Positions 20,409 through 44,826 of a stretch of 64,000 nt of DNA are shown here, piece after piece. The stretch is from Gammaproteobacteria bacterium. GTDB taxonomy: Bacteria; Pseudomonadota; Gammaproteobacteria; Eutrophobiales; Eutrophobiaceae. Position 1 is the stretch's first letter. Each line of letters opens with the position of its first letter. The DNA lies in assembly GCA_041689615.1 (NCBI GenBank), contig JBDNFW010000039.1, positions 32,465 through 96,464 on the forward strand, read 5' to 3'. The position numbers and the translations under genes are program-made. The notes under the pieces were generated by a model, which did not search any database, had not been told where the DNA came from, and was given only the letters and a program-made list of their open reading frames with translations.

Positions 20409-20470
20409 CCTAATATTCTAAATCAAAAAACTAGATGGTTGAATTCATACAAACAAGTTACAGAGAAAGC

Positions 20471-22027: not shown

Positions 22028-22096
22028 CTAAATTCCAAATAATTAAACTCAGTGATTAATTTTAGTCTGCACAATACTCTACGTTTAATAATTAAT

Positions 22097-23059: not shown

Positions 23060-23061
23060 TT

Positions 23062-27426: not shown

Positions 27427-27548
27427 AGAATTAGATTTATCACCCTTTGATTGATATTAACAAAAAGAAAAAACATACTTTCATATCCTGACACAATAAT
27501 ATTTCAATGATGCATACTAAATTTCTATTGGTGCTTCTATTTTAATGT

Positions 27549-29129: not shown

Positions 29130-29350
29130 AATTTTATATTAATTTATTTATGTATATAAACATGGGATTTAATTATAATAACATCTAAAAATTAGCCTTA
29201 TGGTACTGTTTGTTTTTCATTTTAATAGTATTAGTGTGACATATTTCTAAAAATACACTTTTTCTAAGACTACACTCTTAAATATCTTGTTTAATGAGAT
29301 CATCATAATTATTATTGATCACACATCCTATAACCCATAATCTACAGATA

Positions 29351-30286: not shown

Positions 30287-30525
30287 AAGAAATATATTTC
30301 TTATTAGGCAGGCATATTTTTTATGATTATTGCCGCATACAGCTTACTGCTAAATTTAATTAAACTTATAACAAGTTGATAACATCATTTATATGGCTCC
30401 AAAAAGATAATAAATATTTCGGCCATATTATTTTTATTCCTTAATAGGAATTACGATAACAATTCTTTCATTTACTTAAAATTTCTAATCAACAATATTT
30501 ATAACTACATAGAATTAATAATATT

Positions 30526-32082
30526 TTGATAAACCATAGTTTTACAAACTCCGGCATTAGAAAGTATACTTTTTGTTTCATATCGATAATTGCTCTCATA
30601 ACATATACAACCATAGCAATTAAATTTGTTTGGCACGATAGTCTCACAACTTTTGCCAGCGATAGCGCAAATTATATGCTAATGGCGCTTTACCTTTCTC
30701 CATGGGAAGAAGCAAGCTTGCCAATACAGTCGCTATGGCCATATCAAGAATACCCGCCACTTTTCCCATTTGTACTGGCACTTACCGGTGTTGTACACAA
30801 CATGACTGCAGCACATGTATTTACATTATTTATACTAATCGCTGCATTGCCACTCATTTACTTGTTCGCAAAACAATGCTTTGCAACAAAATGGCAAGCT
30901 ATGTTTATAACTTCAATATTTATCATTAGTCCATCAACATGGATGAATATACTAGGAATTTTAAGTGAAAATTTATATATATTCTTAAGTTTTTTAATTT
31001 TAATATTGTTTAATAAACAGAAATTTCAAACTATTAGAATGGCTGTAATTTTTGGAATTCTTTTATCAGCCCTTATGTTAACCCGCACCATTGGCGTTGC
31101 AATGTTTGCAGCATACTTTTTCTCTGGACTTTTACTCTACAAAAGAAAAGAGATAAATAAAATTATTTATTTGATGCCCATATTTATTACAATATTTATC
31201 AATGGCATAGCAAAATTACTTCACCAATCCAGCATACCTTCTCAATACATAAGACAATTAAAAGATCTCGAATTTGGAAATCAATTTATTGCCATAATTG
31301 ACGCATGGTTTTCATCTTGGCAATTTTATTGGACTGATAATTTAATGCTTCCTTATGCAATCGTTCTTGTGACAGGCTTACTTGCATGTTTTGGTCTGCT
31401 ATATCGTTTAACCACACTGAAATTTGATGCTATTTACGTTACAGTATATTTACTAATACTTTTATTGTGGCCTCACCCTGGACAAGCATTACGGTTCATA
31501 TATCCAATCCAAGCAATTCTACTGATATATGCTTTTTACTTTTTAGATTATTTATGTAAAACATTTTCAAGCACATCATCTTATAAACCTATTACTATAT
31601 TACTTTTGTTAATGTTCTCCGTTGTTTTACCACCATTATCCTTTGCGTATAATAGATATAATGTTGGTTCTGACAATGAGTATAATCATATAAAAGAATT
31701 TTATAGGTTCCCAGATATAAAAAATGCACAAATAAATGCTGGCATACAAACCGCTATGTTTAATGACATGGTAGACATCAAAAATGACACTAATGAAAAT
31801 GACTTAATATTATATTTTAATTCTTCCTATATCGCTTTATTAGCTAATAGAAAAAGCAAAGATATTAAATTTAATTATATAGATGATAATTTATACACTG
31901 TTGATGATGTTAGTGACGCCGACTATATCTATCTAAGTAGATTACATCCTAGAAAAACCAGAGAAAATATTAATGGTTTGGCAACATTGAAATATTTTGC
32001 TGAAAAAACAGAAATAATATGGACGCACTATTCTGATGAAAATAATGAGCCCGTATCTATTTTTTTAAAAGTTGTAAAATAA
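30526..32082 (+). CDS. Polytopic GT-C-like membrane protein with C-terminal soluble domain
   Basis: 518 aa. Paralogous to the 526-aa protein on the opposite side of uxs. Confidence 0.5.
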   Translation: MINHSFTNSGIRKYTFCFISIIALITYTTIAIKFVWHDSLTTFASDSANYMLMALYLSPWEEASLPIQSLWPYQEYPPLFPFVLALTGVVHNMTAAHVFTLFILIAALPLIYLFAKQCFATKWQAMFITSIFIISPSTWMNILGILSENLYIFLSFLILILFNKQKFQTIRMAVIFGILLSALMLTRTIGVAMFAAYFFSGLLLYKRKEINKIIYLMPIFITIFINGIAKLLHQSSIPSQYIRQLKDLEFGNQFIAIIDAWFSSWQFYWTDNLMLPYAIVLVTGLLACFGLLYRLTTLKFDAIYVTVYLLILLLWPHPGQALRFIYPIQAILLIYAFYFLDYLCKTFSSTSSYKPITILLLLMFSVVLPPLSFAYNRYNVGSDNEYNHIKEFYRFPDIKNAQINAGIQTAMFNDMVDIKNDTNENDLILYFNSSYIALLANRKSKDIKFNYIDDNLYTVDDVSDADYIYLSRLHPRKTRENINGLATLKYFAEKTEIIWTHYSDENNEPVSIFLKVVK

Positions 32083-32098
32083 TACATACTATAAAGCT

Positions 32099-33091
32099 TT
32101 AAGATATGGTTTCTTCAAATAAATTTTTATATTCTTCTATCATTTTTTTTAATGTGAAATTTTTTTCTATTTTCTCTCTATTGTAGGCTCCCATTTCTTT
32201 TCGTAACTGAACTGATTCTGCTAATGTATCTATACATTCTGCAAATAATTCTGCCTTGTTAATAGGACATAAAAAACCGCCTTTTTTATCATCCACAAGT
32301 TCTGGTAATGATGAGCAATCTGTCACAACCACTGGCAAACCGCATGCCATTGCTTCTGCAACTGCGAGTCCAAATCCTTCTCTCACAGTCGGAGACACCA
32401 GAATATCTACTTCATTATACAAAGATGGCATAGCACTATGATCAACACTACCAACACATATTGCTTTCGGATGTTTTATCTGCCTTTTATTTGAACGCAG
32501 CCCTGATGTGTAAAGAAGTTCTATATTTGATTCAGTTCGATCAAGTATTTTGGGGATTAAATCTACACCTTTTTTTCTACTAAGATCTCCACTAAATAGG
32601 ATTTTTATCTTGTTGTCACTTTTTCTTTTTGTCCTTTTAGGAATAAATATATTTTCATCAACACCATTATGAATAACTCTTATTTCTTTTGTATAATTTA
32701 ATTCTGACTTTACTAAACTAGCCAAATACTGACTACCACATGTAATAACTTTTGATTTTTTTAATGCTTGTTCAATGAAAAACTTTAAATCAGTTCGATA
32801 ATGAATTCTCTGTGCAATAGATGAATACGGTTCTATATATCGGTCAAGAACGAAACTGTGAAATGTTGAGACCAAAGGCTTACTGGGTAATTTCGAAAAA
32901 ATAGCATAATCAATTGGAGCATGGATTAAATCTGCTGTCTTATCACCAAAATAGCGTATTGCAGGTGGGAAATATGACCAATTAGGATGGTAAGGTATTA
33001 CCTTGTAATTACTAATATTTGATTCCAACGATTTATGCGCAATATATGCACCACTTCCATAAGCAACGGGGCTACTAATTTTCATAATCAC
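32099..33091 (-). CDS. GT4 (GT-B fold) glycosyltransferase
   Basis: 330 aa. EX7E motif region REGFGLAVAEAMACGLPVV. Confidence 0.8.
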   Translation of the reverse strand: MIMKISSPVAYGSGAYIAHKSLESNISNYKVIPYHPNWSYFPPAIRYFGDKTADLIHAPIDYAIFSKLPSKPLVSTFHSFVLDRYIEPYSSIAQRIHYRTDLKFFIEQALKKSKVITCGSQYLASLVKSELNYTKEIRVIHNGVDENIFIPKRTKRKSDNKIKILFSGDLSRKKGVDLIPKILDRTESNIELLYTSGLRSNKRQIKHPKAICVGSVDHSAMPSLYNEVDILVSPTVREGFGLAVAEAMACGLPVVVTDCSSLPELVDDKKGGFLCPINKAELFAECIDTLAESVQLRKEMGAYNREKIEKNFTLKKMIEEYKNLFEETIS

Positions 33092-33122: not shown

Positions 33123-33911
33123 CTAATCATCTTTTTTAAAAAAAGTATTATAGGGCAAGGTTCTTAAAAGAAATCTTGTTTTAAATGGGTAATATAAAAT
33201 CCAGAATATAATTTGCATTAAACGCCATACAATATTTTTTTCATTTTTTGCCTGCAAACTGATTTCTTCATGCAACCTTGTCGATAAATATTTATCAGTA
33301 CTACAAGGTCCGTCTCCTCCCATGAAAGCTACGGGTATTTTTTCAAAACTGACACTGCTTCGTATATTTATAGCACGATAGAGGAAATCATAATCCTCGG
33401 TGATCGTATATTTAAGATCGTAATCTCCAATTTCATCAAATAATTTCCGATTAACGAAGATGCCCTGATGCGGAAATATATTCCTGAATCTAATCCACCA
33501 TAAATGCTGAATAGGGTTAATTTGTTCGACGTTATCGGGAGATAACTCCTTTATAATCGGAAAACTATAGATATCAAGTTTTTTAGCAGAGATAATTTCA
33601 TGTACTTTTTTCAGTACATTCTCATTTAATAAATAATCGTCTGCCTGGATCGCGATAATATATTCACCCGTTGATAAGTTTACCGCTTTATTAAAGGCAT
33701 CCGGCACGCCCTGATCAACTTCGGATATCCACTTCAAATTATAGGTATTTTTATAAGAAGCAAGAATCTCCAGCGTATTGTCAGAAGAAGCACCATCAAT
33801 CACAATATGCTCATAATCCTGATAAATTTGATTTTTGATGGATTCAATCGTTCTCTTTATGGATCCCCCTTTATTCAAAGATGCTGTAATAACAGTAAAA
33901 TAAGGAGCCAT
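33123..33911 (-). CDS. GT2 (GT-A fold) glycosyltransferase, soluble type
   Basis: 262 aa. FTVITASLNKGGSIKRTIESIKNQIY...IVIDGASSDNT. DxD in AIQADDY. No C-terminal TM. Confidence 0.78.
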   Translation of the reverse strand: MAPYFTVITASLNKGGSIKRTIESIKNQIYQDYEHIVIDGASSDNTLEILASYKNTYNLKWISEVDQGVPDAFNKAVNLSTGEYIIAIQADDYLLNENVLKKVHEIISAKKLDIYSFPIIKELSPDNVEQINPIQHLWWIRFRNIFPHQGIFVNRKLFDEIGDYDLKYTITEDYDFLYRAINIRSSVSFEKIPVAFMGGDGPCSTDKYLSTRLHEEISLQAKNEKNIVWRLMQIIFWILYYPFKTRFLLRTLPYNTFFKKDD

Positions 33912-33949: not shown

Positions 33950-34849
33950 TTATAACGCAGGATTTATCCATGTTTGAATTCCATCTCCAAACTCAATCTT
34001 TCCAAATGGCGTATCATTTATTTTATTACGCTTATAATCTCGTAAACAACTCCAATTATTATTTAACATCAATTCACGAATATTTTCTTCTATTTTTACA
34101 GAATGTGTTCCAATATGTAATCGCTTAACTTTTTTATTTATTATATCGGCAGATGATTTTAACACATCAAACTCTTTACCCTGTATATCCATATGGATCA
34201 TATCAACATAATCAATGTCTGATAAAATTGAATTTAACGTATAAGTTTTAACATTTAAAACATCAAGATTATATTGTCCTGTCTTGAATTTTTTCTGACG
34301 CCAGCACCTTATCTTCCTATAAAGCATATTTACTAAATTATCATTTACAATTGATTGCCCATAACATTTACTAGGATCTCCTATTTCAAATTGTACTATT
34401 TTTTCAGTATCATCAATTGCACCTTGATATATCTCATGATTTTCCACATTTATATTATTCATCTCTAGATTATCAATAACCCAGCCAAAGTGAGTAGGCT
34501 CTGCCTCGACTATTACAAGTTTAGTAAAAAGCGGCCTGAGTATTGAAGCTATATAATAAGCAATAACTGACCATCTTGCATATCCCGCACCTAATTCAAC
34601 AAAAGTATAATTATCCGTAGCGCACTCGATACTTTCACAAATATCTAGCCATTCAAATACAGCGTCATTATTCGTTGAAATTTCTTTTTTGCAGTAAAAA
34701 TCAAAACATTTTTTATCAGTGAAATTTATTTCTCTATTTAATTCCACATCATACTTCTTTAGTTGAACAGAGCCACAGCGAGTATGAATAATATCTGAAT
34801 CAAGATGTCCTTCTTTAAAGTTAAATCTATTAAATATCTCTGGATACAT
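33950..34849 (-). CDS. FkbM-family methyltransferase domain protein
   Basis: 299 aa. FVELGAGYARW...LVIVEAEPTHFGWVIDNL pattern typical of the FkbM MTase domain. Confidence 0.5.
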   Translation of the reverse strand: MYPEIFNRFNFKEGHLDSDIIHTRCGSVQLKKYDVELNREINFTDKKCFDFYCKKEISTNNDAVFEWLDICESIECATDNYTFVELGAGYARWSVIAYYIASILRPLFTKLVIVEAEPTHFGWVIDNLEMNNINVENHEIYQGAIDDTEKIVQFEIGDPSKCYGQSIVNDNLVNMLYRKIRCWRQKKFKTGQYNLDVLNVKTYTLNSILSDIDYVDMIHMDIQGKEFDVLKSSADIINKKVKRLHIGTHSVKIEENIRELMLNNNWSCLRDYKRNKINDTPFGKIEFGDGIQTWINPAL

Positions 34850-34955
34850 TTGTGGCTCACCTAATTATTTTTAATCAATAATATCTATATGCTAAATGAA
34901 CCGTCGGTATATTTGCATATGCTTATAGATTAACTCTGTCACTAAAATTATTTTA

Positions 34956-36035
34956 TTACAAAATTATTTCTTGCAACTCTATTTTATTCAAACCCCAATC
35001 GTCATCATTATGAATAATCGGTGCTTTTGATTTATACATTTTCGATACCCAGTCATCAAGTTCTTTAATAGACATAACCGGAACTTTATTCTTTTCAAGA
35101 CGTTTGTATAAACTTCTATCTTTTTCTGATTTTGGCGACCAACCACTATCATGTTCAATATGATAAATAGGAGCTTCAATCATTATTTCTTTAATACCTG
35201 CAAAAAAAGCAATATAACAAACCAAAGAATCTAGATGCAGGGAAAACAATTCCAACTCAGGAGCACCTTTTATATCAAACCAATCATCTCTCGACATTAA
35301 ATGAAAATCACCACAAGCATTAGTATGCAGTTTCATCCATTGTCTATGTTTTTTTGTTAACTTATAAAAATACATAACAATGCGACTATCGCGATATTTT
35401 TCTAGCAACTCAATCCCGGGAATATATTTGCGTCTCTTTCCGACAAAAGGAATCGTAGGAAATGGTGGGATAAAGGGTAATGCATTTGAGTTCTCACAAT
35501 CAATTATTCCCCTTTTTTCATTAATTCGAATCGTATGATCCTTACAAACATTAAGTAGATCGTTAAACTTGTTATATTTGAAGATATCTCTTGAGACATC
35601 ATGCCTGTCCACACGATAGTAATTACCTTTTTCCAATTTTGTCGAAGACAAGTATTCCATTAATTCATTTGAAAAAATGATGTCGACATTTGTTGACAAT
35701 ATAAATTCGCCTTTAGCACGAACAATTCCAACGTTTTTTGCAATCATCTGAAATAGAGGAAGACCGTCAGAATATTTATATTGATTATGCAATTCTGAAG
35801 GCACATGGATTATTCTGACATTACAAAATGAATTTTTTTTATCCCAATTTAACACGTCTACTAAACGCGGTTCATTTTCAGGAGGATTCCATTCAACCAG
35901 AATCAATTCCGTTGATAATTTATATTTTTCACACTGAATAAAAAGGCCATCAATGAATATTTGCATCCGCTTAATTAAATCACCGCCATGATTATCATTA
36001 CGAGATGTTGCTATTATAGATATTCTTGGATTCAT
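34956..36035 (-). CDS. Hypothetical protein, possible GT-A-like glycosyltransferase
   Basis: 359 aa. N-terminal ISIIATSRNDNHGG resembles the GT2 start. Possible DxD in TNVDIIF. No TM. Confidence 0.3.
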   Translation of the reverse strand: MNPRISIIATSRNDNHGGDLIKRMQIFIDGLFIQCEKYKLSTELILVEWNPPENEPRLVDVLNWDKKNSFCNVRIIHVPSELHNQYKYSDGLPLFQMIAKNVGIVRAKGEFILSTNVDIIFSNELMEYLSSTKLEKGNYYRVDRHDVSRDIFKYNKFNDLLNVCKDHTIRINEKRGIIDCENSNALPFIPPFPTIPFVGKRRKYIPGIELLEKYRDSRIVMYFYKLTKKHRQWMKLHTNACGDFHLMSRDDWFDIKGAPELELFSLHLDSLVCYIAFFAGIKEIMIEAPIYHIEHDSGWSPKSEKDRSLYKRLEKNKVPVMSIKELDDWVSKMYKSKAPIIHNDDDWGLNKIELQEIIL

Positions 36036-36137
36036 AAATATTATATTGCTAATATATAAGATAATTTTTTATACTGCATCGAGACTTGTAAACTCCCATG
36101 TCTTCTAAGCGACATTAAAATGCAATCTGTATCGAAC

Positions 36138-36917
36138 TCATGATAGTTTACAAGTTATTAAAGTATGCCAACCTAATTCCCTGCATAAAGCACCAAACAT
36201 TTTTTCAGACATAACTTCAAACCAAGGTTCAAGCTGATACTCATAATTTATATATTTCCCTACTATAAATGGAAATATATGATCCTGATGCATGTCAATA
36301 ATCTCAAAATCCGCTAATAATTCACGCAACTCATCCTGAGAATACGTATATGCAACAGGACATCCAGATTGTGCTTCTGGTTGGTCAAAGCCACTTTCTA
36401 TCATAATATTCTTCCATGAGTTTTTCGCATACATCATTAACCGAAATTCAGATTCATTACCCATATACTGCTTAACACTCTCTATCACTTCTCCTGGGTT
36501 TGGCGTGTGATGTATAACGCCAAAAGAATATACTAAATCATAATTTTCTATTGGAACGATTGATAATAAATCTTCTGCATTTCCTTGATAAAATTTTCCA
36601 TCTAAGTTAAAAACATCAAATCTTTTTTTAGTAAGCTCTAGACTTTTATCTGAGAGCTCAATAGCTGAATATTTTGCCCCTGCCCTTGCAAAATTTATTG
36701 CATCAGTACCCAACCCACATCCTATCTCAAGCACTTTCTTGCCTTTCCACTTTTCAAAATCGGCAAAGTGAGGAATGTGAGGCTCAACAAAATATTTTCT
36801 TTCTTCAACCTCATCGAAATATTTTTTTGTTCCTATCTCTGATAGTGAATGTCTTATATTACAAGGTCGCTTATTCCAGTAATCACGGACATTATTAATA
36901 TTATCGTTACCATTCAT
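36138..36917 (-). CDS. Class I SAM-dependent methyltransferase
   Basis: 259 aa. KKVLEIGCGLGTDAINFARAGA. Confidence 0.78.
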   Translation of the reverse strand: MNGNDNINNVRDYWNKRPCNIRHSLSEIGTKKYFDEVEERKYFVEPHIPHFADFEKWKGKKVLEIGCGLGTDAINFARAGAKYSAIELSDKSLELTKKRFDVFNLDGKFYQGNAEDLLSIVPIENYDLVYSFGVIHHTPNPGEVIESVKQYMGNESEFRLMMYAKNSWKNIMIESGFDQPEAQSGCPVAYTYSQDELRELLADFEIIDMHQDHIFPFIVGKYINYEYQLEPWFEVMSEKMFGALCRELGWHTLITCKLS

Positions 36918-36973
36918 ATCTTATTTTCACCTATCAATTTTCAAAATAAAAAATATTTTAATACTAACTTACA

Positions 36974-37852
36974 TTACTTTTTTGATGCTATTAACCAATC
37001 TGAACACATCCATTTCGGCAACCATGCTGCTATTTTCCCATTCAAACTTAACAAGGCATCACTTTCTCTCATAAGTATGTTTATAATATTTCCTGCTAAA
37101 AATGTACGGCTTTTAAACTCTATAATTTTATAACCACTACTTCTTAATAACTGTTTTATATTGCGAGATGTAAACTTATTACAGTGAATTGTTTCTTCAT
37201 CTAATGAAGAACATGATGCATTACAATATTCTGGGGAACGTTCAATTTTATGACGCTTTAACAAACTCTTTGAACCATATCGTTCTACTACTGCTTGCTG
37301 ACATAGATCAATGTAACTAACAAATTTCGGATAACGCTCATAAAAAATACTTTCAAATTCGAAATAACCATATCCATTAGGTACCGTTATTAACAAAAGT
37401 CCACCATCCACTAATACATCTTTCATTTCCTTTAATAATTCATCAGGTTTTTCCAAATGTTCCAAGACCTCCGAACAAATTACAATATGGAATTGTTCAG
37501 TATCAGTCAAAGTAGCTAACGATTGACAATAGAAGGATACATTAGAATAATTTTTCGTCATGCTAATTGCTTTATTAATGGATGCTTCGTTTACATCAAC
37601 ACCCTTAACATTGTACCCAATATCTGCAAGCGGAATAGTCACAGCAACACCAGTGCCACAACCAACATCTAGAATTTTAATGTCTTCAACACTAAAACCT
37701 AGACTACTTCTAATAGCTTCGATATGTTTTAAAAAAAATCGGAGGCGTTTAATAATGCCAAAGGCATCTTCTCTAAAACTATAACCGGAAAAATCAATCG
37801 TAGATGGAAATACATCAACACACTCTTGATTCAAGATTGGTGATGTATTCAT
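36974..37852 (-). CDS. Class I SAM-dependent methyltransferase
   Basis: 292 aa. KILDVGCGTGVAV. Confidence 0.78.
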   Translation of the reverse strand: MNTSPILNQECVDVFPSTIDFSGYSFREDAFGIIKRLRFFLKHIEAIRSSLGFSVEDIKILDVGCGTGVAVTIPLADIGYNVKGVDVNEASINKAISMTKNYSNVSFYCQSLATLTDTEQFHIVICSEVLEHLEKPDELLKEMKDVLVDGGLLLITVPNGYGYFEFESIFYERYPKFVSYIDLCQQAVVERYGSKSLLKRHKIERSPEYCNASCSSLDEETIHCNKFTSRNIKQLLRSSGYKIIEFKSRTFLAGNIINILMRESDALLSLNGKIAAWLPKWMCSDWLIASKK

Positions 37853-38577
37853 TCGGTCCTTATAAGATCAAACCAGTTAAAATCATTATTGTGAAAATTA
37901 AAACTGAGAATCACATTAAAATTAGCGGGACTAAGTCTTTCTTGTAGTTTATGGAGATCATACCATTCCATCCAAGGTGCTCCTCCATCTGTTTTCGCTC
38001 CCCATTTATCTAATGGCATTTCACCTTCCTGCACCCAGCGTTCTCTTGGATAAGCTAATTCAATCCATCGACCTCCGACCGGCAAATGCTCTAATAATAA
38101 CTGTGCTTCCTCACCTGCAATATCAAAAGGAAGATTAATCATAGAACCTTGACACCAAATTACATCAAAATTGCTTGGTAATTTTTTTAACGACTCAAAT
38201 TCTTCTAAGTAAAGAAATTCAACATTTGTTAGCCCTAGTAAGCAACAAATTCTTTTCAGAAGTTCAAGGTTCGATTGTACGATATCTACAAATGTCACAT
38301 TCGCTCCATTTTGGGCAAATGTAATTCCATCTATGCCAAAACCACTACCCACATCCATAATCTTCTTATTCTTAAAGACCTCCATATACAGACTGTGATA
38401 CCAGCCTCTAACTTCAAAATATTTTCCTGTGGTAGCATCTATCTTTGTTTTATTCCACAATTCTATCAATTCTTTATCCGAAATATTTTTCAATTCAGAT
38501 GTAGTAATTCGGCTATGTCCCGCAGGCACTTCACACCATTTATCTCGCAACTTTTCCAATGGTTTATTCCAGTTCAA
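37849..38577 (-). CDS. Class I SAM-dependent methyltransferase
   Basis: 242 aa. KIMDVGSGFGIDGITFAQNGANVTFVDI. 4-bp overlap with the next methyltransferase gene. Confidence 0.78.
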   Translation of the reverse strand: MNWNKPLEKLRDKWCEVPAGHSRITTSELKNISDKELIELWNKTKIDATTGKYFEVRGWYHSLYMEVFKNKKIMDVGSGFGIDGITFAQNGANVTFVDIVQSNLELLKRICCLLGLTNVEFLYLEEFESLKKLPSNFDVIWCQGSMINLPFDIAGEEAQLLLEHLPVGGRWIELAYPRERWVQEGEMPLDKWGAKTDGGAPWMEWYDLHKLQERLSPANFNVILSFNFHNNDFNWFDLIRTE

Positions 38578-38642
38578 TTAATATTCTCCACATTCAATTT
38601 TAAGTAAATACTGAAATCATCATCCATATATATATATCAGAA

Positions 38643-39758
38643 CTAGGTTAGTCTATACATGTCTAAAAACTGCGTGCTATTTCCATAAAAAAACGGAATG
38701 CTCTTAATGTATTTTTTTAAGAAACTGTCATGTTTTGTTAACTTGTTCGGAAACGTTATAAATTTTTTTTTATAATGAATCTTATTTGACTTAATATCAA
38801 CGATCCTTAATTCATTTTTATCCGCAATTGAAAATGCATATATGTCACCATCAATTTGTATAGAATCATGTAGCCATTTTGATTCTATACTGAACATATT
38901 TTTGACATTTCTATTTTTATCTATAACCAGTAATTTCCCTTCCGTACTATCAGTAAAGTATATTAAATCTTTGTCACTGACTCTTGCTCCATGGCATCCA
39001 ACATGTCCTGATATAAGCTCAACATATTTTCCAGTATCCAGATTAAAACACCCTACAGCTCCAGGTATTAATGCTGATACCACTATATTATTTTTCTTTT
39101 TATCCGGATACGCAGAATTAATATGAGCTATCTGCAAATCATTTTTTATATAATGATTTCGAAGATCCATTTCTTCAGTAATCTCATAATTCTCTCCATA
39201 TATCTCTTTAGGCATTCTAATATTTTTCTTTACTTCACCCGAATCCAAATCAAGAATCATAATAGCATCAGAAGCCGAAGCCGAAATAACGGCAAGTTTT
39301 TCTGTTACCATAGAAACCGTATGTAAGCCGGCAAAATGCGGATGGCTATATGTCTTATAAAGATAACAATCTGTTTTATTTAAATTATTATATTTTGTTA
39401 TAGATTTATGAAGTTTCCATAATTCAATTGATGCTACATAAACTACTATTATAGTTTTTTCATCTACTAATACAGCATGTTGTATTTTTCTATTTGAACA
39501 TACAGAACCGAGCATTTTAAAAAAATAATTATTATTTAAATCTTTTAATGCCAAATAAAAACTAATACCACCTGTATACAAGATGGATTCTTTTATTGGC
39601 AACAACTGTTCAAATGGAATTAAATTTTGCAACCGATCAGGGGACGCATATCTTTGTTCCAATGATTTTCTAGCACACTCGGAAAAATCCGTTTTTCTAC
39701 TTGAATGGGTTAAAGAAATAACACCAAATTTTATTTTTTCAGACACAGATTTAATCAT
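38643..39758 (-). CDS. Hypothetical protein, probable beta-propeller (SGL/NHL-like)
   Basis: Repeated blade-like segments, e.g. GHVGCHGARVSDKDLIYFTDSTEGKLLVID. Start moved to the second Met (MIKSVSEK), giving an 8-bp overlap with the wzt stop instead of the 68 bp in the ORF track. Confidence 0.4.
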   Translation of the reverse strand: MIKSVSEKIKFGVISLTHSSRKTDFSECARKSLEQRYASPDRLQNLIPFEQLLPIKESILYTGGISFYLALKDLNNNYFFKMLGSVCSNRKIQHAVLVDEKTIIVVYVASIELWKLHKSITKYNNLNKTDCYLYKTYSHPHFAGLHTVSMVTEKLAVISASASDAIMILDLDSGEVKKNIRMPKEIYGENYEITEEMDLRNHYIKNDLQIAHINSAYPDKKKNNIVVSALIPGAVGCFNLDTGKYVELISGHVGCHGARVSDKDLIYFTDSTEGKLLVIDKNRNVKNMFSIESKWLHDSIQIDGDIYAFSIADKNELRIVDIKSNKIHYKKKFITFPNKLTKHDSFLKKYIKSIPFFYGNSTQFLDMYRLT

Positions 39759-41028
39759 GTGTTTTTGAGCTATTATTAAGCTTCCATTTTTGCTGCATAG
39801 AATAATATCCACCACCAAATTTTTTGGAACCTTGAATTATAAAATTTTTTATACTGAAATTACTGATTGATGCGGCAATCGAAGAAAAATTATTCGGTAA
39901 AACAAAAAGAACGACAGAATAGTTACCAGGAACTAACCATAATCCATTAATATATATACTCAATTGATATTTCTCATTAGCGTTAATAGATATTTTATCT
40001 ATCATGTTTTCGCTGTTATTGCCTGATATGACCATTTTTTCCTTATGAAACTGTAAACATACAATAATATTATCTAACTTCTGAGAAGAATTAATTGAAC
40101 AAGTTAAATTGACCCCAATATTAGGCTCAAAATATTCAACCTCCTCATTATTTTCATTAGTAAATTTAAATTCACTAATTGTAATAATCGGGTCTTTAAT
40201 ATTTACATCAAACTCTGGCGAAACTTCTGAAGCACTCATTGTTGATAATGCATCTTTTTGAAATTGTTTTATTACTTGTGTTGTTTCACCTATACTGCTG
40301 ATAATGCCATCTTTCAAATAAATACATCGGCTAGCAAGTGTTTCTACAACACGTAAATTATGTGACACAACTAATACTGTACGACCATGGCTTGATGCTT
40401 CACTAATTTTTTTTATACATTTTTTTTGAAACCCAATATCTCCAACGGCAAGCACTTCATCTATTAATAATATTTCTGTTTCCAGTTGCGCCGCTACCGC
40501 AAAAGCTAAACGCATATACATCCCACTCGAATAATGCTTCACTGGTGTATCGATAAATTTTTCTATTTCAGAAAAACTAACTATTTCATCAAATTTTGAA
40601 TTAATTTCTGTGCGTTTCATACCTAGAATCACACCGTTTAAGAAAATATTCTCACGACCTGTTAATTCAGGATGAAAGCCGGCTCCAACTTCCAAAAGAG
40701 AACCAACACGACCTAGAATTTTTGCACTACCTGAAGTTGGCTCAGTAATACTTGTAAGAATTTTTAATAAAGTACTTTTCCCTGCTCCATTCCTGCCGAT
40801 AATCCCAATTACTTCACCTTTTTTTATATCAAACGATACATCTTTTAATGCCCAGATTGTTTCACCTAGCTCTACAGCTGAATGACCACCCAGGTATGAT
40901 TTCAATCTTCGAAACGGAGAGGTGACTTTTTCTTCTATAGACTCGCGCAAAGTATTATATCTGGCCTGCTTTCGGCCTATCCTGTAGGACTTACTTAAGT
41001 CCTCTACGTGAATTGCAATTTCGTTCAT
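39751..41028 (-). CDS. wzt: ABC transporter ATP-binding protein Wzt/KpsT/TagH type with ~170-aa C-terminal extension (putative glycan-terminus binding module)
   Basis: Walker A GRNGAGKST, signature YSSGMYMRLAFA, Walker B LLIDEVLAVGD. Residues after ~250 are non-NBD and beta-rich. Confidence 0.85.
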   Translation of the reverse strand: MNEIAIHVEDLSKSYRIGRKQARYNTLRESIEEKVTSPFRRLKSYLGGHSAVELGETIWALKDVSFDIKKGEVIGIIGRNGAGKSTLLKILTSITEPTSGSAKILGRVGSLLEVGAGFHPELTGRENIFLNGVILGMKRTEINSKFDEIVSFSEIEKFIDTPVKHYSSGMYMRLAFAVAAQLETEILLIDEVLAVGDIGFQKKCIKKISEASSHGRTVLVVSHNLRVVETLASRCIYLKDGIISSIGETTQVIKQFQKDALSTMSASEVSPEFDVNIKDPIITISEFKFTNENNEEVEYFEPNIGVNLTCSINSSQKLDNIIVCLQFHKEKMVISGNNSENMIDKISINANEKYQLSIYINGLWLVPGNYSVVLFVLPNNFSSIAASISNFSIKNFIIQGSKKFGGGYYSMQQKWKLNNSSKTHD

Positions 41029-41039
41029 GCTAGGTATTT

Positions 41040-42404
41040 TTAACTATCTTGCCATAAGGCCGAAAGTTTTCTGCCATTTTCGTCATCATCGATACTTCGA
41101 CCAGCTGGATAATATTTAATATTAGCTTTATTACCCAGCTCTTCATCCAGTATTCTCCAGAAGTCAAATACGATTACTTCTTTGTTATTAAAAGACGCTG
41201 CCGTTATCTTTTTAAATTCTGGATCTGCAGTTGTAATAAGAAATACTTTTGCTTGTTCCAGACACTCTTCAAGGCTATCCAAAACAACGATACGATTCTT
41301 AAATTCACTATTTATAGCTTCTGAAGCTAATGGGTCGAATGCAACAACTCTTGTTCCAGATTTGACTAGTGATTCAGCAAGATATGTCCCTTGTGATTCT
41401 TCAATAACATGTGAAAAAGGTTTATAGGCCATCCCCAACACTGCAACTGTGTCTGATTGAGATATTATACTTTTAATCTGAGATACAATTTTTGGAACGA
41501 TAGCTTTGTTTGCTTTATCCGTTGTTTCTGCTATTCCCGCATCTACACCAAGTTCTCTTGAAAAATACCCAAGAGCAACATTATCACGAGGAAAACATGG
41601 GCCGCCATAACCGAGAGCTCCGGTAAGGTACTTCTTCCCAATTCTAGAATCACTACCAATAGCATTAGTAACTATATCAACATCCCCTCCAGGAATTTTT
41701 TCACAGAGCTCGCGTAGCATATTTGCATACGTTATCTTTGTTGTTACAAATGTATTCAAGGCGACCTTTGTCAACTCAGCATTTTCTAGACTCATACGTC
41801 GACAAGGTGGTGCATTTGACATTATCTCTGAATACGACTTCTCCAGAATATCTCCAGATTTTTTATCAAATTCACCTACCAGAGTAAAATCTGGATTTAA
41901 AAAATCCCTGATTATGCTACCAAGTGCAATAAACTCTGGGCTGTAACATAGACCAAAATCAATTCCACACTTTTTACCCGACTCCTCTTCTAAAACAGAA
42001 AGAAGTCCATATCGTGTAGAACCAGGTAAAACTGTACTTGTAAGAACAACTAGATGATAGGTTTGCTTTTCTGCAAGCGCACGCCCTATTTCGCGAAAAG
42101 CCCATTTTGCATATTGCAACGAAAATGCACCTTTATCATCACTTGGTGTTGGAACAATCACAAATGAAACATTAGAATTTACTATTGCTTCTGTATGACT
42201 TAATGTCGCTTTTAATCTCGTTTTATTTGCCTTAATCGTTTTCTCAAGATCAGTCTCAGGCACAGGAGCTAAACCTTGATTAACCAAATCCACAGTGTGT
42301 TTACTAATATCCACACCAATAACATCGAACCCTTTACTTGCAATAGCAGCTGCCATACTGCATCCAAGCTTACCAAGACCTATAACTGAATATTCTATGC
42401 CCAT
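41040..42404 (-). CDS. Nucleotide-sugar 6-dehydrogenase (UDP-glucose/GDP-mannose dehydrogenase family; best resemblance to AlgD-type GDP-mannose dehydrogenase)
   Basis: 454 aa. GLGKLGCSMAA Rossmann motif. VIGVDISKHTVDLVNQG, LTSTVLPGST, SGKKCGIDFGLCYSPEF, GYGGPCFPRD catalytic Cys motif. Confidence 0.8.
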   Translation of the reverse strand: MGIEYSVIGLGKLGCSMAAAIASKGFDVIGVDISKHTVDLVNQGLAPVPETDLEKTIKANKTRLKATLSHTEAIVNSNVSFVIVPTPSDDKGAFSLQYAKWAFREIGRALAEKQTYHLVVLTSTVLPGSTRYGLLSVLEEESGKKCGIDFGLCYSPEFIALGSIIRDFLNPDFTLVGEFDKKSGDILEKSYSEIMSNAPPCRRMSLENAELTKVALNTFVTTKITYANMLRELCEKIPGGDVDIVTNAIGSDSRIGKKYLTGALGYGGPCFPRDNVALGYFSRELGVDAGIAETTDKANKAIVPKIVSQIKSIISQSDTVAVLGMAYKPFSHVIEESQGTYLAESLVKSGTRVVAFDPLASEAINSEFKNRIVVLDSLEECLEQAKVFLITTADPEFKKITAASFNNKEVIVFDFWRILDEELGNKANIKYYPAGRSIDDDENGRKLSALWQDS

Positions 42405-42455: not shown

Positions 42456-43439
42456 TTACGAGCAGTGACTTTTATTCACTTTATCTTCAATCCATTCATA
42501 TGTTTTTTCCATTCCAATTTTAAGTGACTGTGTAGGCTTCCAATTTAATTTATCTTTTATTAAGTTATTATCAGAATTTCTACCCCTGACACCTAATGGG
42601 CCTTCAATGTGATTAATCGTCAATTTTTTACCTGCTATATCCATAGCCATTTCTGCCAATTGATTAATCGTAACCATTTCATCTGAACCAATATTTACCG
42701 GACCTGTCCAGTCAGAACGCGTTAATATATTTGTTCCTTCTATACATTCGTCTATATATAAAAATGATCGCGTTTGTTTTCCATCACCCCATATTTCAAT
42801 TTCACCATTATTTTTTGCTTCCACAACTTTTCTACATATCGCTGCAGGCGCCTTCTCCCGACCGCCACACCATGTTCCTTGCGGGCCAAAAATATTATGA
42901 TAACGAGCTATTCTTACTTCTATGCCGTGATTTCTCTGGTATGACAAATACAGTCGTTCACTAAATAATTTTTCCCACCCATATTCACTATCAGGCTCTG
43001 CCGGATAAGCACTCTCTTCGGAACATTTTGGATTATCTGGATCCAGCTGATTGTATTCTGGGTATATACAAGCAGATGAAGAGTAAAATATTCTTTTTAT
43101 ATTTCTTTTATGACAAGCATCGATTAGATTTAAATTAATGAGTGCTGAATTTTGCATAATATGTGCATCATTCTCCCCCGTAAATATAAAGCCGGCACCA
43201 CCCATGTCCGCAGCAAATTGATAAACCTCATCGAATCGACAATCGATAATGGAACGACAAATAGACTGTTCTCGTAAATCACCAATAACAAAATCATCTG
43301 CATGTGTCTCATCAAACTCTGGATATTTAAGATCAACACCACGCACCCAATACCCTTCTTTCTTTAATCGTTTAACCATATGGCTTCCTATGAAACCACC
43401 CGCTCCACATACCAATACTTTTTTCATGTTATCCTCCAA
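42456..43439 (-). CDS. SDR epimerase homologous to GDP-mannose 3,5-epimerase (GME)
   Basis: 327 aa, collinear with plant GME: ADMGGAGFI, SSSACIYPE, YPAEPDSEYGWEKL, GTWCGGREKAPAAICRK, IWGDGKQTRSF, PVNIGSDEMVTINQLAEMA, GPLGVRGRNSDNNLIKDKLNW. Confidence 0.8.
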   Translation of the reverse strand: MEDNMKKVLVCGAGGFIGSHMVKRLKKEGYWVRGVDLKYPEFDETHADDFVIGDLREQSICRSIIDCRFDEVYQFAADMGGAGFIFTGENDAHIMQNSALINLNLIDACHKRNIKRIFYSSSACIYPEYNQLDPDNPKCSEESAYPAEPDSEYGWEKLFSERLYLSYQRNHGIEVRIARYHNIFGPQGTWCGGREKAPAAICRKVVEAKNNGEIEIWGDGKQTRSFLYIDECIEGTNILTRSDWTGPVNIGSDEMVTINQLAEMAMDIAGKKLTINHIEGPLGVRGRNSDNNLIKDKLNWKPTQSLKIGMEKTYEWIEDKVNKSHCS

Positions 43440-43442
43440 ATA

Positions 43443-44279
43443 TTAAATAACATCTGCAATTTTTTTCTCTGTTCTACAGAAAAAGAGCAGGCCCGTTAAT
43501 AAAATAAATAACGAAACAAATGCCGATACTATCAACATAAGTCCAGGCGCATTTTCTTCTGTCCCAAATAACGACCACCTAACCCCTTCAATCACTCCAA
43601 CCATCGGATTAATTCCATAAACTGAACGCCATGGTTCGGGTAACATACTGCTGGGATACACTACTGGTGATGCAAATAACCATAGCTGAATTAAGAAAGG
43701 CACCACATGACGGACATCTCGAAAAAGCACATTCATTGTTGCAAACCATAATCCAACACCTAAAGATGTAACACATGCTAATAAAATAAAGAATGGGATC
43801 CATAATATATTCATGCTTGGCAACATCCCGAAGAAAGGCATCATTAATAAAAGAACGATAAACGCCAGTATAAAATCAACAAAACCAGATAAGACAGATG
43901 CAATTGGAATAATTATTCTTGGAAAATACACTTTCTTTATTAAATTTGAATTACTAACAAGACTTTCTGAGCATTGCGTTAAACCATTTGCAAAAAATAT
44001 CCATGGAACCAAGGCTGCAAAACTAAAAATTGTGTAAGGAATATTATCAGATGGAATTTTAGCGATATAACCAAAGAAGATAGTGAATATGATCATTGCT
44101 AGTACTGGCTGAATTATCGCCCATGATGCACCTATTATGGTTTGTTTATAACGAACTTTTATATCACGCCAAATAAAAAAATATAATAACTCACGATATT
44201 TCCATATTTCAACGAGTTTGTTAAACGAGCAACCTTTACTCGATTTAATGACAGTTATGTGACAAGGCGCTTCATTCAT
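43443..44279 (-). CDS. wzm: ABC-2 type transporter permease Wzm
   Basis: 278 aa, six TM. N-terminal IWKYRELLYFFIWRDIKVRYKQT typical of Wzm/KpsM. Confidence 0.85.
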   Translation of the reverse strand: MNEAPCHITVIKSSKGCSFNKLVEIWKYRELLYFFIWRDIKVRYKQTIIGASWAIIQPVLAMIIFTIFFGYIAKIPSDNIPYTIFSFAALVPWIFFANGLTQCSESLVSNSNLIKKVYFPRIIIPIASVLSGFVDFILAFIVLLLMMPFFGMLPSMNILWIPFFILLACVTSLGVGLWFATMNVLFRDVRHVVPFLIQLWLFASPVVYPSSMLPEPWRSVYGINPMVGVIEGVRWSLFGTEENAPGLMLIVSAFVSLFILLTGLLFFCRTEKKIADVI

Positions 44280-44826
44280 GATCAGGTGTAATTTCTTCCC
44301 ATAATATAAGCTGGGGTCTGCCTTTTAATTTAGGTATAAGTTCCTCATATTCTTCTTTCTTTAGAACTAATGTTCTAATTTTTCTACTAATATATTTTTC
44401 TGTTTTTTTAACTACATCATCTAGATTAGATTGATCAATATCTCCAACCAAAACTAAATCTATTAACCCAGTGTCTTTCCCTTGTGCATAGTCATCAATC
44501 AAAAAAGCTAAGTCTAAATTTCCTAATCTTTCAAGAATACTTTCAAGAATCTGATCCATGCCCAAAGCTTTTTTCACCATTGATTGAAGCTCAGGAAATA
44601 AAGGGTGCTCAGTATTAGCCCGATAATTAATCTGCCGACCTGATTTAGTACTTTTTAATAAACCGGCATCGCTTAATTGCTGTAGTTCTCCAGAAACTTG
44701 GCTAGGCGATATAGTAAATTCATTAGCTAATTCACGTAAATAAGCCTGCTGTTGCGGATTTAGAAATAAACGCATCAAGATACTGATGCGTGTTTTAGAA
44801 GAAATTAGTGAAGATAGTATCGACAT
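44272..44826 (-). CDS. Winged-helix (ArsR-like) transcriptional regulator with C-terminal nucleotidyltransferase-like domain
   Basis: 184 aa. TRISILMRLF...QAYLRELANEFTISPSQVSGELQQLSDAGLL HTH. C-terminal DDYAQGKDTGLIDLVLVGD. 8-bp overlap with wzm. Confidence 0.6.
   Translation of the reverse strand: MSILSSLISSKTRISILMRLFLNPQQQAYLRELANEFTISPSQVSGELQQLSDAGLLKSTKSGRQINYRANTEHPLFPELQSMVKKALGMDQILESILERLGNLDLAFLIDDYAQGKDTGLIDLVLVGDIDQSNLDDVVKKTEKYISRKIRTLVLKKEEYEELIPKLKGRPQLILWEEITPDHE

Follow-up and report, generated by a model that had tools for sequence, protein, structure and literature searches.

An ABC-transporter-dependent surface-glycan locus with a Wzt carbohydrate-binding domain and four divergent methyltransferases in an uncultured gammaproteobacterium

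In characterised systems, a Wzt protein bearing a carbohydrate-binding domain (CBD) accompanies a cap at the non-reducing end of the glycan, often a methyl group (PMC9445017, PMC3482155, PMC3560663). The Escherichia coli O8/O9a polymannans (WbdA-D, Wzm/Wzt-CBD) are ABC-transporter-dependent, fed by GDP-mannose, and made by GT4 enzymes; a methyl or methyl-phosphate cap is read by the Wzt CBD, and the terminator sets chain length (PMC3482155). Aquifex aeolicus Wzt (7K2T, 8DKU, 8DKY, and 6O14) joins a nucleotide-binding domain (NBD) to a C-terminal beta-sandwich CBD, and its cap is a 3-O-methyl sugar from a GDP-mannose-derived pathway. The CBD was crystallised with a 3-O-methyl-mannose cap (8DKY) and does not bind unmethylated mannose; in this sole methyl-cap-bound CBD structure, Trp362 stacks on the methyl group (PMC9445017). 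[quoted passage not shown] In P. aeruginosa, polymer production depends on two of these together, neither of which has the extra domains of WbdD (PMC3560663). CPA methyltransferases are partly redundant, and the locus varies between strains (PMC3560663, PMC7820976). Sugar caps are an established alternative, with terminal beta-Kdo in Klebsiella O12 and Raoultella terrigena, and cap-independent systems are defined by their non-reliance on a terminal modification (PMC9445017).

The window analysed here is 64,000 nucleotides (64 kb) from an uncultured gammaproteobacterium represented solely by assemblies. The cluster is ordinary in kind and itself uncharacterised: an export pump whose tail reads sugars, followed by four methyltransferases. 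It is a single minus-strand operon, running from 44826 to 32099, for an ABC-transporter-dependent surface glycan that is most likely a lipopolysaccharide O-antigen. The range 33950-41028 is its downstream half, where every gene is on the minus strand and gaps or overlaps between neighbours are small. The genes of the operon are as follows:

44272..44826, minus strand: HTH_184, ArsR/MarR-like winged-helix regulator, gene 1 of the operon (Pfam HTH_20/HTH_5, weak)
43443..44279, minus strand: Wzm, ABC-2 permease (Pfam ABC2_membrane, 69.9 bits)
42456..43439, minus strand: GDP-mannose 3,5-epimerase (GME) orthologue (phmmer, conserved motifs)
41040..42404, minus strand: nucleotide-sugar 6-dehydrogenase (NCBIfam NDP-sugDHase, 314.9 bits)
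39751..41028, minus strand: Wzt, 425 aa, NBD at residues 1-~258 and C-terminal CBD at ~262-425
38643..39758, minus strand: orphan protein, putative beta-propeller, 371 aa, variable accessory gene
37849..38577, minus strand: MT1, class-I SAM methyltransferase, 242 aa (Pfam Methyltransf_31/25/23; motif I IMDVGSGFG)
36974..37852, minus strand: MT2, class-I SAM methyltransferase, 292 aa (Pfam Methyltransf_23, 76.5 bits; motif I ILDVGCGTG)
36138..36917, minus strand: MT3, class-I SAM methyltransferase, 259 aa (Pfam Methyltransf_31, 53.4 bits; motif I VLEIGCGLG)
34956..36035, minus strand: unk_359, GT-A-fold glycosyltransferase, 359 aa (AlphaFold2 and Foldseek)
33950..34849, minus strand: FkbM-family methyltransferase, 299 aa (Pfam Methyltransf_21, 27.2 bits, cutoff 22.7)
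33123..33911, minus strand: GT2_262, GT2 glycosyltransferase, 262 aa, conserved core (Pfam Glycos_transf_2, 68.7 bits)
32099..33091, minus strand: GT4_330, GT4 glycosyltransferase, 328-330 aa, final operon gene, part of the conserved core (Pfam Glycos_transf_1, 92.2 bits)

The GME orthologue matches Arabidopsis GME (2C59) over its full length (phmmer E 1.4e-104) and keeps the SSACIYPE, YGxEKL, and GGREKAPAA motifs in the alignment; its predicted product is GDP-L-galactose or GDP-L-gulose. The top PDB match of the dehydrogenase is the GDP-mannose dehydrogenase AlgD (1.6e-60), with UDP-glucose dehydrogenases only marginally behind, and its substrate may be either a GDP-sugar or a UDP-sugar. Together with Wzm, these genes suggest GDP-mannose-derived L-sugars or uronic acids as the building blocks of the glycan. 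The 3,5-epimerase (L-sugar) route differs from the D-rhamnose or D-mannose route of A. aeolicus, and the epimerase and dehydrogenase stand in place of the GMD/RMD pair of CPA.

Syntenic orthologues with 52-91% amino-acid identity recur in six independent metagenomic loci, which shows that these are genuine genes rather than chance open reading frames. Transporter, sugar-precursor, and glycosyltransferase genes are kept in six of the six related locus types, with identities of 59-74% for Wzm, 66-85% for GT2_262, and 56-74% for GT4_330. HTH_184 is 67-89% identical across all related loci and is also the first gene of different Wzm/Wzt loci in L011, L016, and L019. The block from wzt to unk_359 is variable, and the methyltransferase set of a locus ranges from one to five or more; one locus, L091, has the same gene order as the window. 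Different Wzm/Wzt-CBD loci occupy the equivalent chromosomal site in other gammaproteobacteria, and GC content is 0.30-0.37 at the locus and 0.39-0.44 in its flanks. The varied content and low GC fit a hypervariable O-antigen-type site, and the methyltransferase variation among relatives suggests serotype-like differences.

We propose, with a probability of roughly 0.55, that the glycan is cap-dependent, ABC-transporter-exported, and O-methylated, with serotype-like variation in methylation, and that terminal methylation licenses its export through Wzm/Wzt. The 3,5-epimerase, perhaps together with the dehydrogenase, would turn GDP-mannose into sugars of the L-galactose/L-gulose type and/or uronic-acid donors. 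GT4_330, GT2_262, and unk_359 would assemble a polyprenol-linked chain at the cytoplasmic membrane face, and the four unrelated SAM methyltransferases would O-methylate it. At least one methyl group on the non-reducing terminal sugar would block extension and create an epitope for the Wzt CBD, whose binding to the methylated end would license export; the other methyl groups could either share that sugar, making the cap multiply methylated, or decorate internal residues. In this way the four methyltransferases would probably tag completed chains for export, and their differing sets among relatives would produce serotype-like variants. The analysis establishes which genes are present, the fold and homology of the CBD, the GT-A fold of unk_359, the orthology of GME, and which genes are conserved and which vary; the parts of the model that we infer are a methyl cap, the position of each methyl group, a link between capping and chain length, and the acceptor that finally receives the glycan.

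The first-pass annotation had read about 170 non-ATPase residues behind the NBD as a carbohydrate-binding module, and ~167 were found. Pfam ABC_tran matches Wzt residues 61-192, and Wzt_C matches residues 282-378, barely over threshold (31.0 bits, cutoff 30.4). The AlphaFold2 model (pLDDT 83.7) has a confident nine-strand beta-sandwich at residues 282-419. A. aeolicus Wzt, which shares this architecture, is the best match by sequence and by structure: the phmmer alignment (E 1.5e-59) reaches into the CBD, the best Foldseek matches are to the full-length protein (7K2T/8DKU, E 1e-37; NBD-only chains, ~1e-25), and a profile built from the CBD alone matches the A. aeolicus CBD crystal structures (8DKY/6O14, E 1e-13). 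By homology and modelled fold, the C-terminus (~262-425) is a true Wzt CBD, as first proposed. Other, unrelated Wzt CBDs of the alignment share on average only ~14% identity with it.

Whether this domain acts as a gatekeeper is a separate matter. Export may be uncoupled from terminal modification, for which K. pneumoniae O2a-type systems are a model, and the methyltransferases would then decorate internal residues or precursors. No part of the locus diverges faster than the CBD, with 37-52% identity to relatives vs 68-79% for the NBD (83% for the NBD and 46% for the CBD between P0007 and P0009), a pattern that could reflect relaxed constraint. The marginal Wzt_C score, the freely varying methyltransferase set, and the absence of a terminator or ruler protein are also consistent with uncoupled export. 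However, all 14 members of the subfamily, together with most of the 120 Wzt homologues listed, retain a full-length CBD with a confident fold, and G368, Y370, and W415 are near-invariant even across very distant CBDs. Cap-dependent systems, moreover, do not export without a functional CBD (PMC9445017), and we consider the uncoupled alternative unlikely. Two observations count against a methyl group as the epitope in the preferred, cap-dependent reading. The methyl-stacking Trp362 of A. aeolicus appears, in an uncertain alignment, to correspond to Ala386 and so not to be conserved. In addition, differences between CBDs do not follow differences in methyltransferase content: the CBD of the window is 52% identical to that of L091, which has the same set, and also 52% identical to that of L002, which is without MT1.

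SAM-binding motif I is intact in MT1, MT2, and MT3, and all three pass Pfam thresholds, which bears out the earlier description of three class-I enzymes after Wzt, as does the 4-bp overlap of MT1 and MT2 (37849-37852). The FkbM-type assignment is likewise retained, with Methyltransf_21 above its cutoff and NCBIfam fkbM_fam slightly below (36.7, cutoff 37.7). An excess of methyltransferases directly downstream of wzt, beside an ABC-dependent glycan transporter, had been recognised correctly, but the figure of five was a miscount: the range 33950-41028 contains four, and a fifth class-I methyltransferase (23062-23793) lies ~10 kb outside it, past suhB/trmJ. The four, each with an intact SAM motif, are not recent duplicates, since no pair is more alike than MT1 and MT3 (24% identity); their divergence would fit different regiospecificities. 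Extensive O-methylation, as previously suggested, is plausible because the four lineages are unrelated, but it is indistinguishable from a multiply methylated cap, and the proposed likeness to mycobacterial methylated polysaccharides found no support in sequence. A separate methyltransferase for each hydroxyl of one terminal sugar has precedents in the ABC-exported O-antigen of Rhizobium etli CE3, which has a 2,3,4-tri-O-methylfucose cap, and in the regiospecific methyltransferase trios that make tri-O-methylrhamnose in spinosyn (SpnH/I/K) and mycobacterial glycopeptidolipids.

WbdD was absent from the matches of MT2 and MT3 in PDB sequence searches, and MT1 and the FkbM-type enzyme match generic methyltransferase families in Pfam and NCBIfam profiles. 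Pfam scans gave no kinase domain in any gene examined, and no coiled-coil ruler was evident in the window from domain content or protein size. The term "chain-length-controlled" in the first-pass annotation is therefore an argument from analogy; with no dedicated molecular ruler evident among the encoded proteins, any such control would depend on how terminator and polymerase are balanced. In contrast to E. coli O8/O9a, the locus has no WbdD-like kinase domain, coiled-coil ruler, or membrane-anchoring extension; its methyltransferases are small and stand-alone (242-299 aa), with no specific similarity to WbdD for MT2 and MT3, and its glycosyltransferases are single-domain. Any chain-length control would more closely resemble that of the stand-alone methyltransferases of P. 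aeruginosa CPA than that of WbdD. Four methyltransferases set the locus apart from A. aeolicus, and their four lineages, together with an unannotated GT-A family and the orphan 371-aa protein, set it apart from CPA.

Orthologues of MT1 occur in L003/L004 (72%) and L091 and are absent from L002 and L006. Those of MT2 occur in L002 (75%), L003 (52%), and L091 and are absent from L006, and those of MT3 occur in L002 (78%), L006 (74%), and L091 and are absent from L003. The FkbM-type enzyme has orthologues in L002 and L003 and no homologue in L006, where MT3 is the sole one of the four; L091 has a 303-aa gene at its position. No methyltransferase is common to all relatives with the same CBD subfamily, so a single dedicated methyl terminator is not evident.

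This pattern also bears on a second alternative, in which the CBD reads a terminal sugar residue rather than a methyl group. A dedicated glycosyltransferase would add this residue, with unk_359 the most plausible candidate, and the methyltransferases would only decorate capping or internal residues, giving antigenic variants. Each methyltransferase is missing from at least one related locus type, and, of the block after wzt, only unk_359 is found in all related locus types with enough downstream sequence (64-83% identity in L002, L003, and L006). Its AlphaFold2 model has a confident GT-A fold (pLDDT 88.9, pTM 0.89), in agreement with its earlier description as glycosyltransferase-like, with Foldseek matches to K4CP (2Z86, E 1.7e-9), heparosan synthase (8VH8), WrtF (9OML, 2.8e-6), and SpsA. 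It has no Pfam or NCBIfam match, 1783 homologues lack Pfam annotation, and on the modelled fold it is a GT-A glycosyltransferase of a family without a Pfam entry. WrtF of Rhizobium tropici (9OMH-9OMN) is a GT-A enzyme with a GDP-beta-L-sugar donor, encoded in a Wzm/Wzt-CBD O-antigen operon for which the authors of the WrtF study also raise the possibility of a sugar cap (PMC12595478). The two proteins share only ~10% identity with a TM-score of ~0.4, and the best fold matches of unk_359 are K4CP and heparosan synthase rather than WrtF. GT2_262 and GT4_330, however, are as universal as unk_359, which could simply be a polymerising enzyme; the locus has few glycosyltransferases, and perhaps none is spare for capping. 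At least one methyltransferase is also found near wzt in every locus type examined. We regard a terminal-sugar cap as possible but doubtful and retain terminal methylation as the preferred signal.

No WaaL ligase or initiating phosphoglycosyltransferase was found within the 64-kb window, which counts against the methyl-cap model. The lack of WaaL would suit a different acceptor, type IV pilin: after export through Wzm/Wzt, a TfpW-like GT-C/TPR protein would attach the glycan to PilA, not to lipid A-core. Genes for PilA, the GT-C/TPR protein, a GT2, and a GT4 are directly upstream of the operon (45269-49938), and two clades (L005-L007) with only 56-57% identity between their Wzt proteins both keep the pilin module next to Wzm/Wzt. 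Against this, most of 80 loci from gamma- and betaproteobacteria have the pilA/GT-C/GT2 trio with no such Wzm/Wzt cluster, and the trio is thus a self-contained module; a pilin gene is upstream in 73 of the 76 loci with room, and the GT2 is downstream in 60 of 73. A terminator-like hairpin at pilA, a 442-bp gap on the upstream side of HTH_184, and the regulator gene itself separate the two units, and TfpW has been described with monosaccharide lipid donors (bioRxiv 10.1101/2020.04.19.049825). We therefore treat the trio as a separate pilin-glycosylation module, in which the GT2 presumably supplies a polyprenol-phosphate sugar donor, and consider pilin a very improbable destination for the glycan.

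The orphan gene probably starts at 39758, as in the gene call, giving a protein of 371 aa and an 8-bp overlap with wzt. Its propeller-type Pfam matches are below threshold (E 0.0035 and 0.0086), and one homologue carries the JGI name "WD40 repeat protein." The family is rare, with only 81 homologues in 5.8 billion proteins and a Pfam domain in none. The gene is present in L002 and L091, and other genes take its place in L003, L092, and L006. Outside this phylum, the gene of this family comes after a GT4 gene.

The region 33950–41028 is part of a co-directional gene run, all on the minus strand, that apparently starts with a winged-helix regulator gene and ends with a GT4 glycosyltransferase gene.

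Genes of the operon, from its apparent start to its final gene
44272–44826, minus strand, winged-helix regulator; apparent operon start, preceded by a 442-bp gap
43443–44279, minus strand, Wzm; Pfam ABC2_membrane, 69.9 bits
41040–43439, minus strand, SDR enzyme (327 aa; assigned by sequence as a GDP-mannose 3,5-epimerase orthologue) and nucleotide-sugar dehydrogenase (454 aa), between wzm and wzt
39751–41028, minus strand, Wzt, 425 aa; Pfam ABC ATPase and Wzt_C
38643–39758, minus strand, hypothetical protein, 371 aa with the start taken from the gene call of the source contig, a Logan assembly
37849–38577, minus strand, MT1, 242 aa; Pfam class-I methyltransferase
36974–37852, minus strand, MT2, 292 aa; Pfam class-I methyltransferase
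36138–36917, minus strand, MT3, 259 aa; Pfam class-I methyltransferase
34956–36035, minus strand, unk_359, 359 aa
33950–34849, minus strand, FkbM-type methyltransferase, 299 aa; Pfam Methyltransf_21
33123–33911, minus strand, GT2 glycosyltransferase; penultimate gene
32099–33091, minus strand, GT4 glycosyltransferase; final gene

The 4-bp overlap between MT1 and MT2 reported by the first-pass annotation agrees with the gene coordinates. Its description of an extended Wzt followed by clustered methyltransferases is largely correct, but its count of five is not: four lie in 33950–41028, and the fifth, a class-I enzyme at 23062–23793, is outside this range. The "beta-propeller" label given to the 371-aa protein has sub-threshold Pfam matches as its sole basis. 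Ahead of the regulator gene, at 44829–44875, two 21-nt arms separated by 5 nt form a perfect inverted repeat that stops 3 nt short of the ATG. An operator or a hairpin acting on translation would be possible roles for this repeat, which is not conserved at the same position in three related loci (L002, L003, and L006).

The nucleotide-binding domain (NBD) of Wzt is of the Wzt/TagH type (Pfam ABC_tran, 83.1 bits; phmmer E value of 1.5e-59 to A. aeolicus Wzt), and its Walker A motif, GRNGAGKST, is kept in the homologue alignment. The C-terminal region matched Pfam Wzt_C at 31.0 bits (cutoff, 30.4). An AlphaFold2 model of Wzt built with 70 homologues (mean pLDDT, 83.7) has a nine-strand beta-sandwich at residues 282–419, where pLDDT is mostly 88–97. 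The top Foldseek matches were 7K2T and 8DKU, which are full-length structures of A. aeolicus WzmWzt (~408 columns, E value of 1e-37), and NBD-only structures reached ~1e-25 at best. A profile of the carbohydrate-binding domain (CBD) alone matched isolated A. aeolicus CBD crystals in the PDB (8DKY and 6O14, E value of 1e-13) and, marginally, the Raoultella terrigena CBD 5HNO (E value of 0.035). Only the profile succeeded; a single-sequence phmmer search of the CBD against the PDB returned zero matches. Profile and model evidence together show that Wzt ends in a genuine carbohydrate-binding domain, with predicted sugar binding. The first-pass annotation had named this fold as a test of its own reading, and the CBD fold was found by AlphaFold2, Foldseek, and the CBD profile alike. 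In A. aeolicus, the CBD binds 3-O-methyl-mannose and not mannose (PMC9445017). Its methyl-stacking residue is Trp362, whereas the window Wzt seems to have Ala386 at this position in an uncertain profile alignment; the pocket and its methyl recognition are therefore not transferable by homology. The Wzm partner is encoded in the same operon with two sugar-precursor genes between wzm and wzt, an order kept in all related loci.

All three class-I methyltransferases scored above Pfam gathering thresholds, with motif I sequences of IMDVGSGFG (MT1), ILDVGCGTG (MT2), and VLEIGCGLG (MT3). The FkbM-type protein passed the cutoff for Pfam Methyltransf_21 (27.2 versus 22.7 bits) and was borderline for the NCBIfam model fkbM_fam/TIGR01444 (36.7 versus 37.7); otherwise NCBIfam was in line with Pfam. 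The four enzymes are not recent duplicates of each other. We compared this set to WbdD, the chain terminator of E. coli O8/O9a, which has a kinase domain (in the O9a type), a methyltransferase domain, and an extended coiled-coil followed by a C-terminal region that binds the membrane and the polymerase. No protein-kinase or APH-type Pfam domain was found in the operon or in the other scanned parts of the window. When MT2 and MT3 were searched against all PDB sequences (phmmer, E ≤ 1e-3), matches were to generic class-I enzymes with no WbdD entry among them, and a WbdD-like terminator was rejected on this search of the two; MT1 and the FkbM-type protein matched generic Pfam and NCBIfam families alone. 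Judged by size, the methyltransferases (242–299 aa) are too small for a long coiled-coil, and the model of unk_359 has no long helix. Because no WbdD-like kinase was found, MT2 and MT3 have no specific similarity to WbdD, and a long coiled-coil is improbable, the nearest functional parallel, by analogy, is the common polysaccharide antigen (CPA) locus of P. aeruginosa. Its small, partly redundant methyltransferases are required for polymer production and are not rulers (PMC3560663).

A search with Wzt identified a subfamily of homologues (P0002–P0015) that have the CBD of the window at 29%–52% identity; unrelated Wzt CBDs average 14%. The surrounding loci consist of a constant core and a variable block. 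The regulator, Wzm, GDP-mannose 3,5-epimerase, dehydrogenase, Wzt, unk_359, GT2 (GT2_262), and GT4 (GT4_330) are kept in all loci that are long enough. Two others (L005 and L007) match in their upstream part, and their sequences stop just beyond wzt.

Variable block downstream of wzt, in the window and in related metagenomic loci
Window and L091: 371-aa protein, MT1, MT2, MT3, and FkbM-type gene
L002: lacks MT1
L003/L004: lack the 371-aa protein and MT3; add a B12-radical-SAM enzyme, two more FkbM-like genes, and a 296-aa protein
L003, upstream: carbamoyltransferase and GDSL esterase
L092: sulfotransferase-like gene, B12-radical-SAM enzyme, and MT1-like gene
L006: 278-aa protein and MT3, nothing else

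No segment of the locus evolves faster than the CBD; P0007 and P0009, for instance, share 83% identity in the NBD and 46% in the CBD. Identity comparison of related loci found no covariation between the CBD and the methyltransferase set. The idea that the CBD tracks methyltransferase content was dropped, as the window CBD has equal identity (52%) to the CBDs of a same-set locus and of the locus lacking MT1. The L003 variant (positions 1–21269; JGI 3300082588) is far more heavily decorated, with its transporter core ringed by the carbamoyltransferase, a GDSL esterase/acyltransferase, a B12-binding radical-SAM enzyme that is possibly a C-methyltransferase, two class-I methyltransferases, and three FkbM-like methyltransferases.

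None of the methyltransferases is universal among the related locus types, and unk_359 belongs to the constant core. This protein has ~1800 homologues spread over many phyla, and all lack a Pfam domain. Its AlphaFold2 model (pLDDT, 88.9) has a GT-A alpha/beta fold, and the top 50 Foldseek matches are all GT-A enzymes, including K4CP (the best, with an E value of 1.7e-9), heparosan synthase, WrtF (2.8e-6), and SpsA. Invariant N116 and D118 (NVD) occupy the expected position of a DxD motif, and the sequence is not a canonical DxD; WrtF is a GT-A enzyme that works without metal (PMC12595478). By its model, unk_359 is a predicted GT-A glycosyltransferase. The main rival explanation for the locus has this universally conserved enzyme adding a sugar as the cap, with methylation serving as decoration. 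The methyl cap and its coupling to chain length are inferred by analogy with characterized systems (PMC9445017, PMC3482155, and PMC3560663). The evidence best supports a glycan that is O-methylated, cap-dependent, and ABC-exported, with a methylation pattern that differs between relatives. The interpretation made by the first-pass annotation is supported in part.

The second unannotated protein of the operon, of 371 aa, has 81 homologues among 5.8 billion proteins, none annotated. Homologues in Acidobacteriota-type and other contigs (L088–L090) always sit after a GT4 gene in polysaccharide loci. A tie of this protein to Wzt or to the methyltransferases was rejected, as loci of other phyla have no such tie, and it is a putative glycan-associated accessory protein.

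The sugar precursors can be narrowed from two enzymes. The 327-aa SDR enzyme aligned over its full length (residues 4–324) with Arabidopsis GDP-mannose 3,5-epimerase (2C59; E value of 1.4e-104). The motifs SSACIYPE, YGxEKL, and GGREKAPAA, which we take to hold the catalytic Cys, Tyr, and Lys, are identical in this alignment. By sequence, it is clearly an orthologue of GDP-mannose 3,5-epimerase. The 454-aa dehydrogenase is closest, by a narrow margin, to the GDP-mannose dehydrogenase AlgD. Because the operon encodes both, L-galactose or L-gulose derived from GDP-mannose and/or a uronic acid are the probable building blocks of the glycan. With the two genes lying between wzm and wzt, the locus implies a bacterial surface glycan that contains L-galactose, L-gulose, or an L-uronic acid. 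L-Galactose, L-gulose, and their uronic acids are rare in bacteria. Few bacterial GDP-mannose 3,5-epimerases have been characterized (PMC6678494), and this locus places one in a defined glycan pathway.

A more specific version, which we consider unlikely, would have an L-sugar polymer (GDP-mannose-derived L-galactose, L-gulose, or their uronic acids) whose terminal residue is multiply methylated by three to four regiospecific methyltransferases. The fast-evolving CBD would read the permethylated cap, unk_359 would be the L-sugar transferase, and swapping of methyltransferases and CBD would produce new exportable serotypes. Current concepts are unchanged by these results, as methyl-capped, ABC-exported O-antigens are already well established. 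If the methylated-cap reading holds, the related loci form a natural series with one transporter, one glycosyltransferase set, one to at least five methyltransferases, and a fast-diverging cap-reading domain. This series, in uncultured gammaproteobacteria, could be used to ask how CBD specificity coevolves with capping chemistry. Most useful are the methyltransferase-variant series, the epimerase-based precursor route, and the two unannotated families pointed to in glycan assembly, the 359-aa GT-A proteins and the 371-aa orphan.

Directly upstream of the operon are pilS, pilR, and pilA, followed by genes for a 622-aa polytopic protein, a GT2 whose C-terminus has membrane segments, and a GT4.

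Pilin module
45269–49938, minus strand, pilA, 622-aa GT-C-like protein, GT2, and GT4

The pilA gene has its own terminator-like hairpin and probably begins at M42 (about 49815). Adjacency to pilA suggested that the glycan could be made for the pilin. We scanned 185,579 species-representative genomes for the 622-aa family, which yielded 80 loci in gamma- and betaproteobacteria. Of the 76 with room upstream, 73 have a pilin gene immediately before the 622-aa family member; of the 73 with room downstream, 60 have a GT2 immediately after it. The Wzm/Wzt cluster type of the window is present in almost none of the 80. Because this cluster is nearly always absent beside the trio of pilA, GT-C, and GT2 genes, the trio is a separate module. 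With the trio standing alone in most loci, a glycan made for the pilin was rejected as the main reading and is unlikely. The best relative of the window GT-C protein is 58% identical and from an uncultured gammaproteobacterial MAG. TfpW is a polytopic GT-C pilin glycosyltransferase of ~650 aa; it has a C-terminal TPR domain and, in its first loop, a DDx motif, and its gene directly follows pilA (bioRxiv 10.1101/2020.04.19.049825). The 622-aa protein agrees with this published description, the basis of the comparison, in size, position, and its invariant DD motif (D28-D29); Pfam detected no TPR repeats in it. We read the trio as a probable, widespread TfpW-like module that glycosylates pilin from a polyprenol-phosphate hexose. 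Two loci (L019, 9959–13870; L011, 9929–13706) have two tandem GT-C-like genes (~630 aa each) after the pilin gene instead of one, and of these, Pfam confirmed TPR only in the second L019 gene.

GC content is 0.30–0.37 over 18000–52000 versus 0.39–0.44 in the housekeeping flanks (ilv/leu, proS, sucCD, nadE, bamD, and clpB). The same two loci carry different Wzm/Wzt-CBD clusters in the corresponding position, following the pilin module and regulator; one (L019) includes a radical-SAM/pyruvyltransferase fusion and the other heptose-pathway genes. These different clusters and the low GC content indicate a hypervariable, O-antigen-type site, and the glycan and pilin region as a whole is consistent with a hypervariable island of surface-structure genes exchanged horizontally. 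The L019 fusion (19018–21186; Thiotrichaceae bacterium UBA973) joins radical-SAM and polysaccharide pyruvyl transferase domains in 722 aa directly after a CBD-bearing wzt and is a candidate non-methyl terminal modification enzyme. Elsewhere in the window, a 533-aa ORF flanked by proS and a BrkB-family gene (10851–12452, plus strand) had no Pfam match even at E ≤ 5. Further glycan-modification genes surround the housekeeping genes suhB and trmJ and suggest extra periplasmic glycosylation from polyprenol-phosphate sugars.

Glycan-modification genes within 18852–23793 and 25672–32082
Three PMT_2-type (ArnT-like) membrane proteins, 518, 518, and 526 aa
Membrane protein, 518 aa, with 25% identity to a PMT_2 protein
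Protein of 584 aa, Pfam negative
GT2, 320 aa, and an SDR epimerase or dehydratase
23062–23793, fifth class-I methyltransferase, 243 aa
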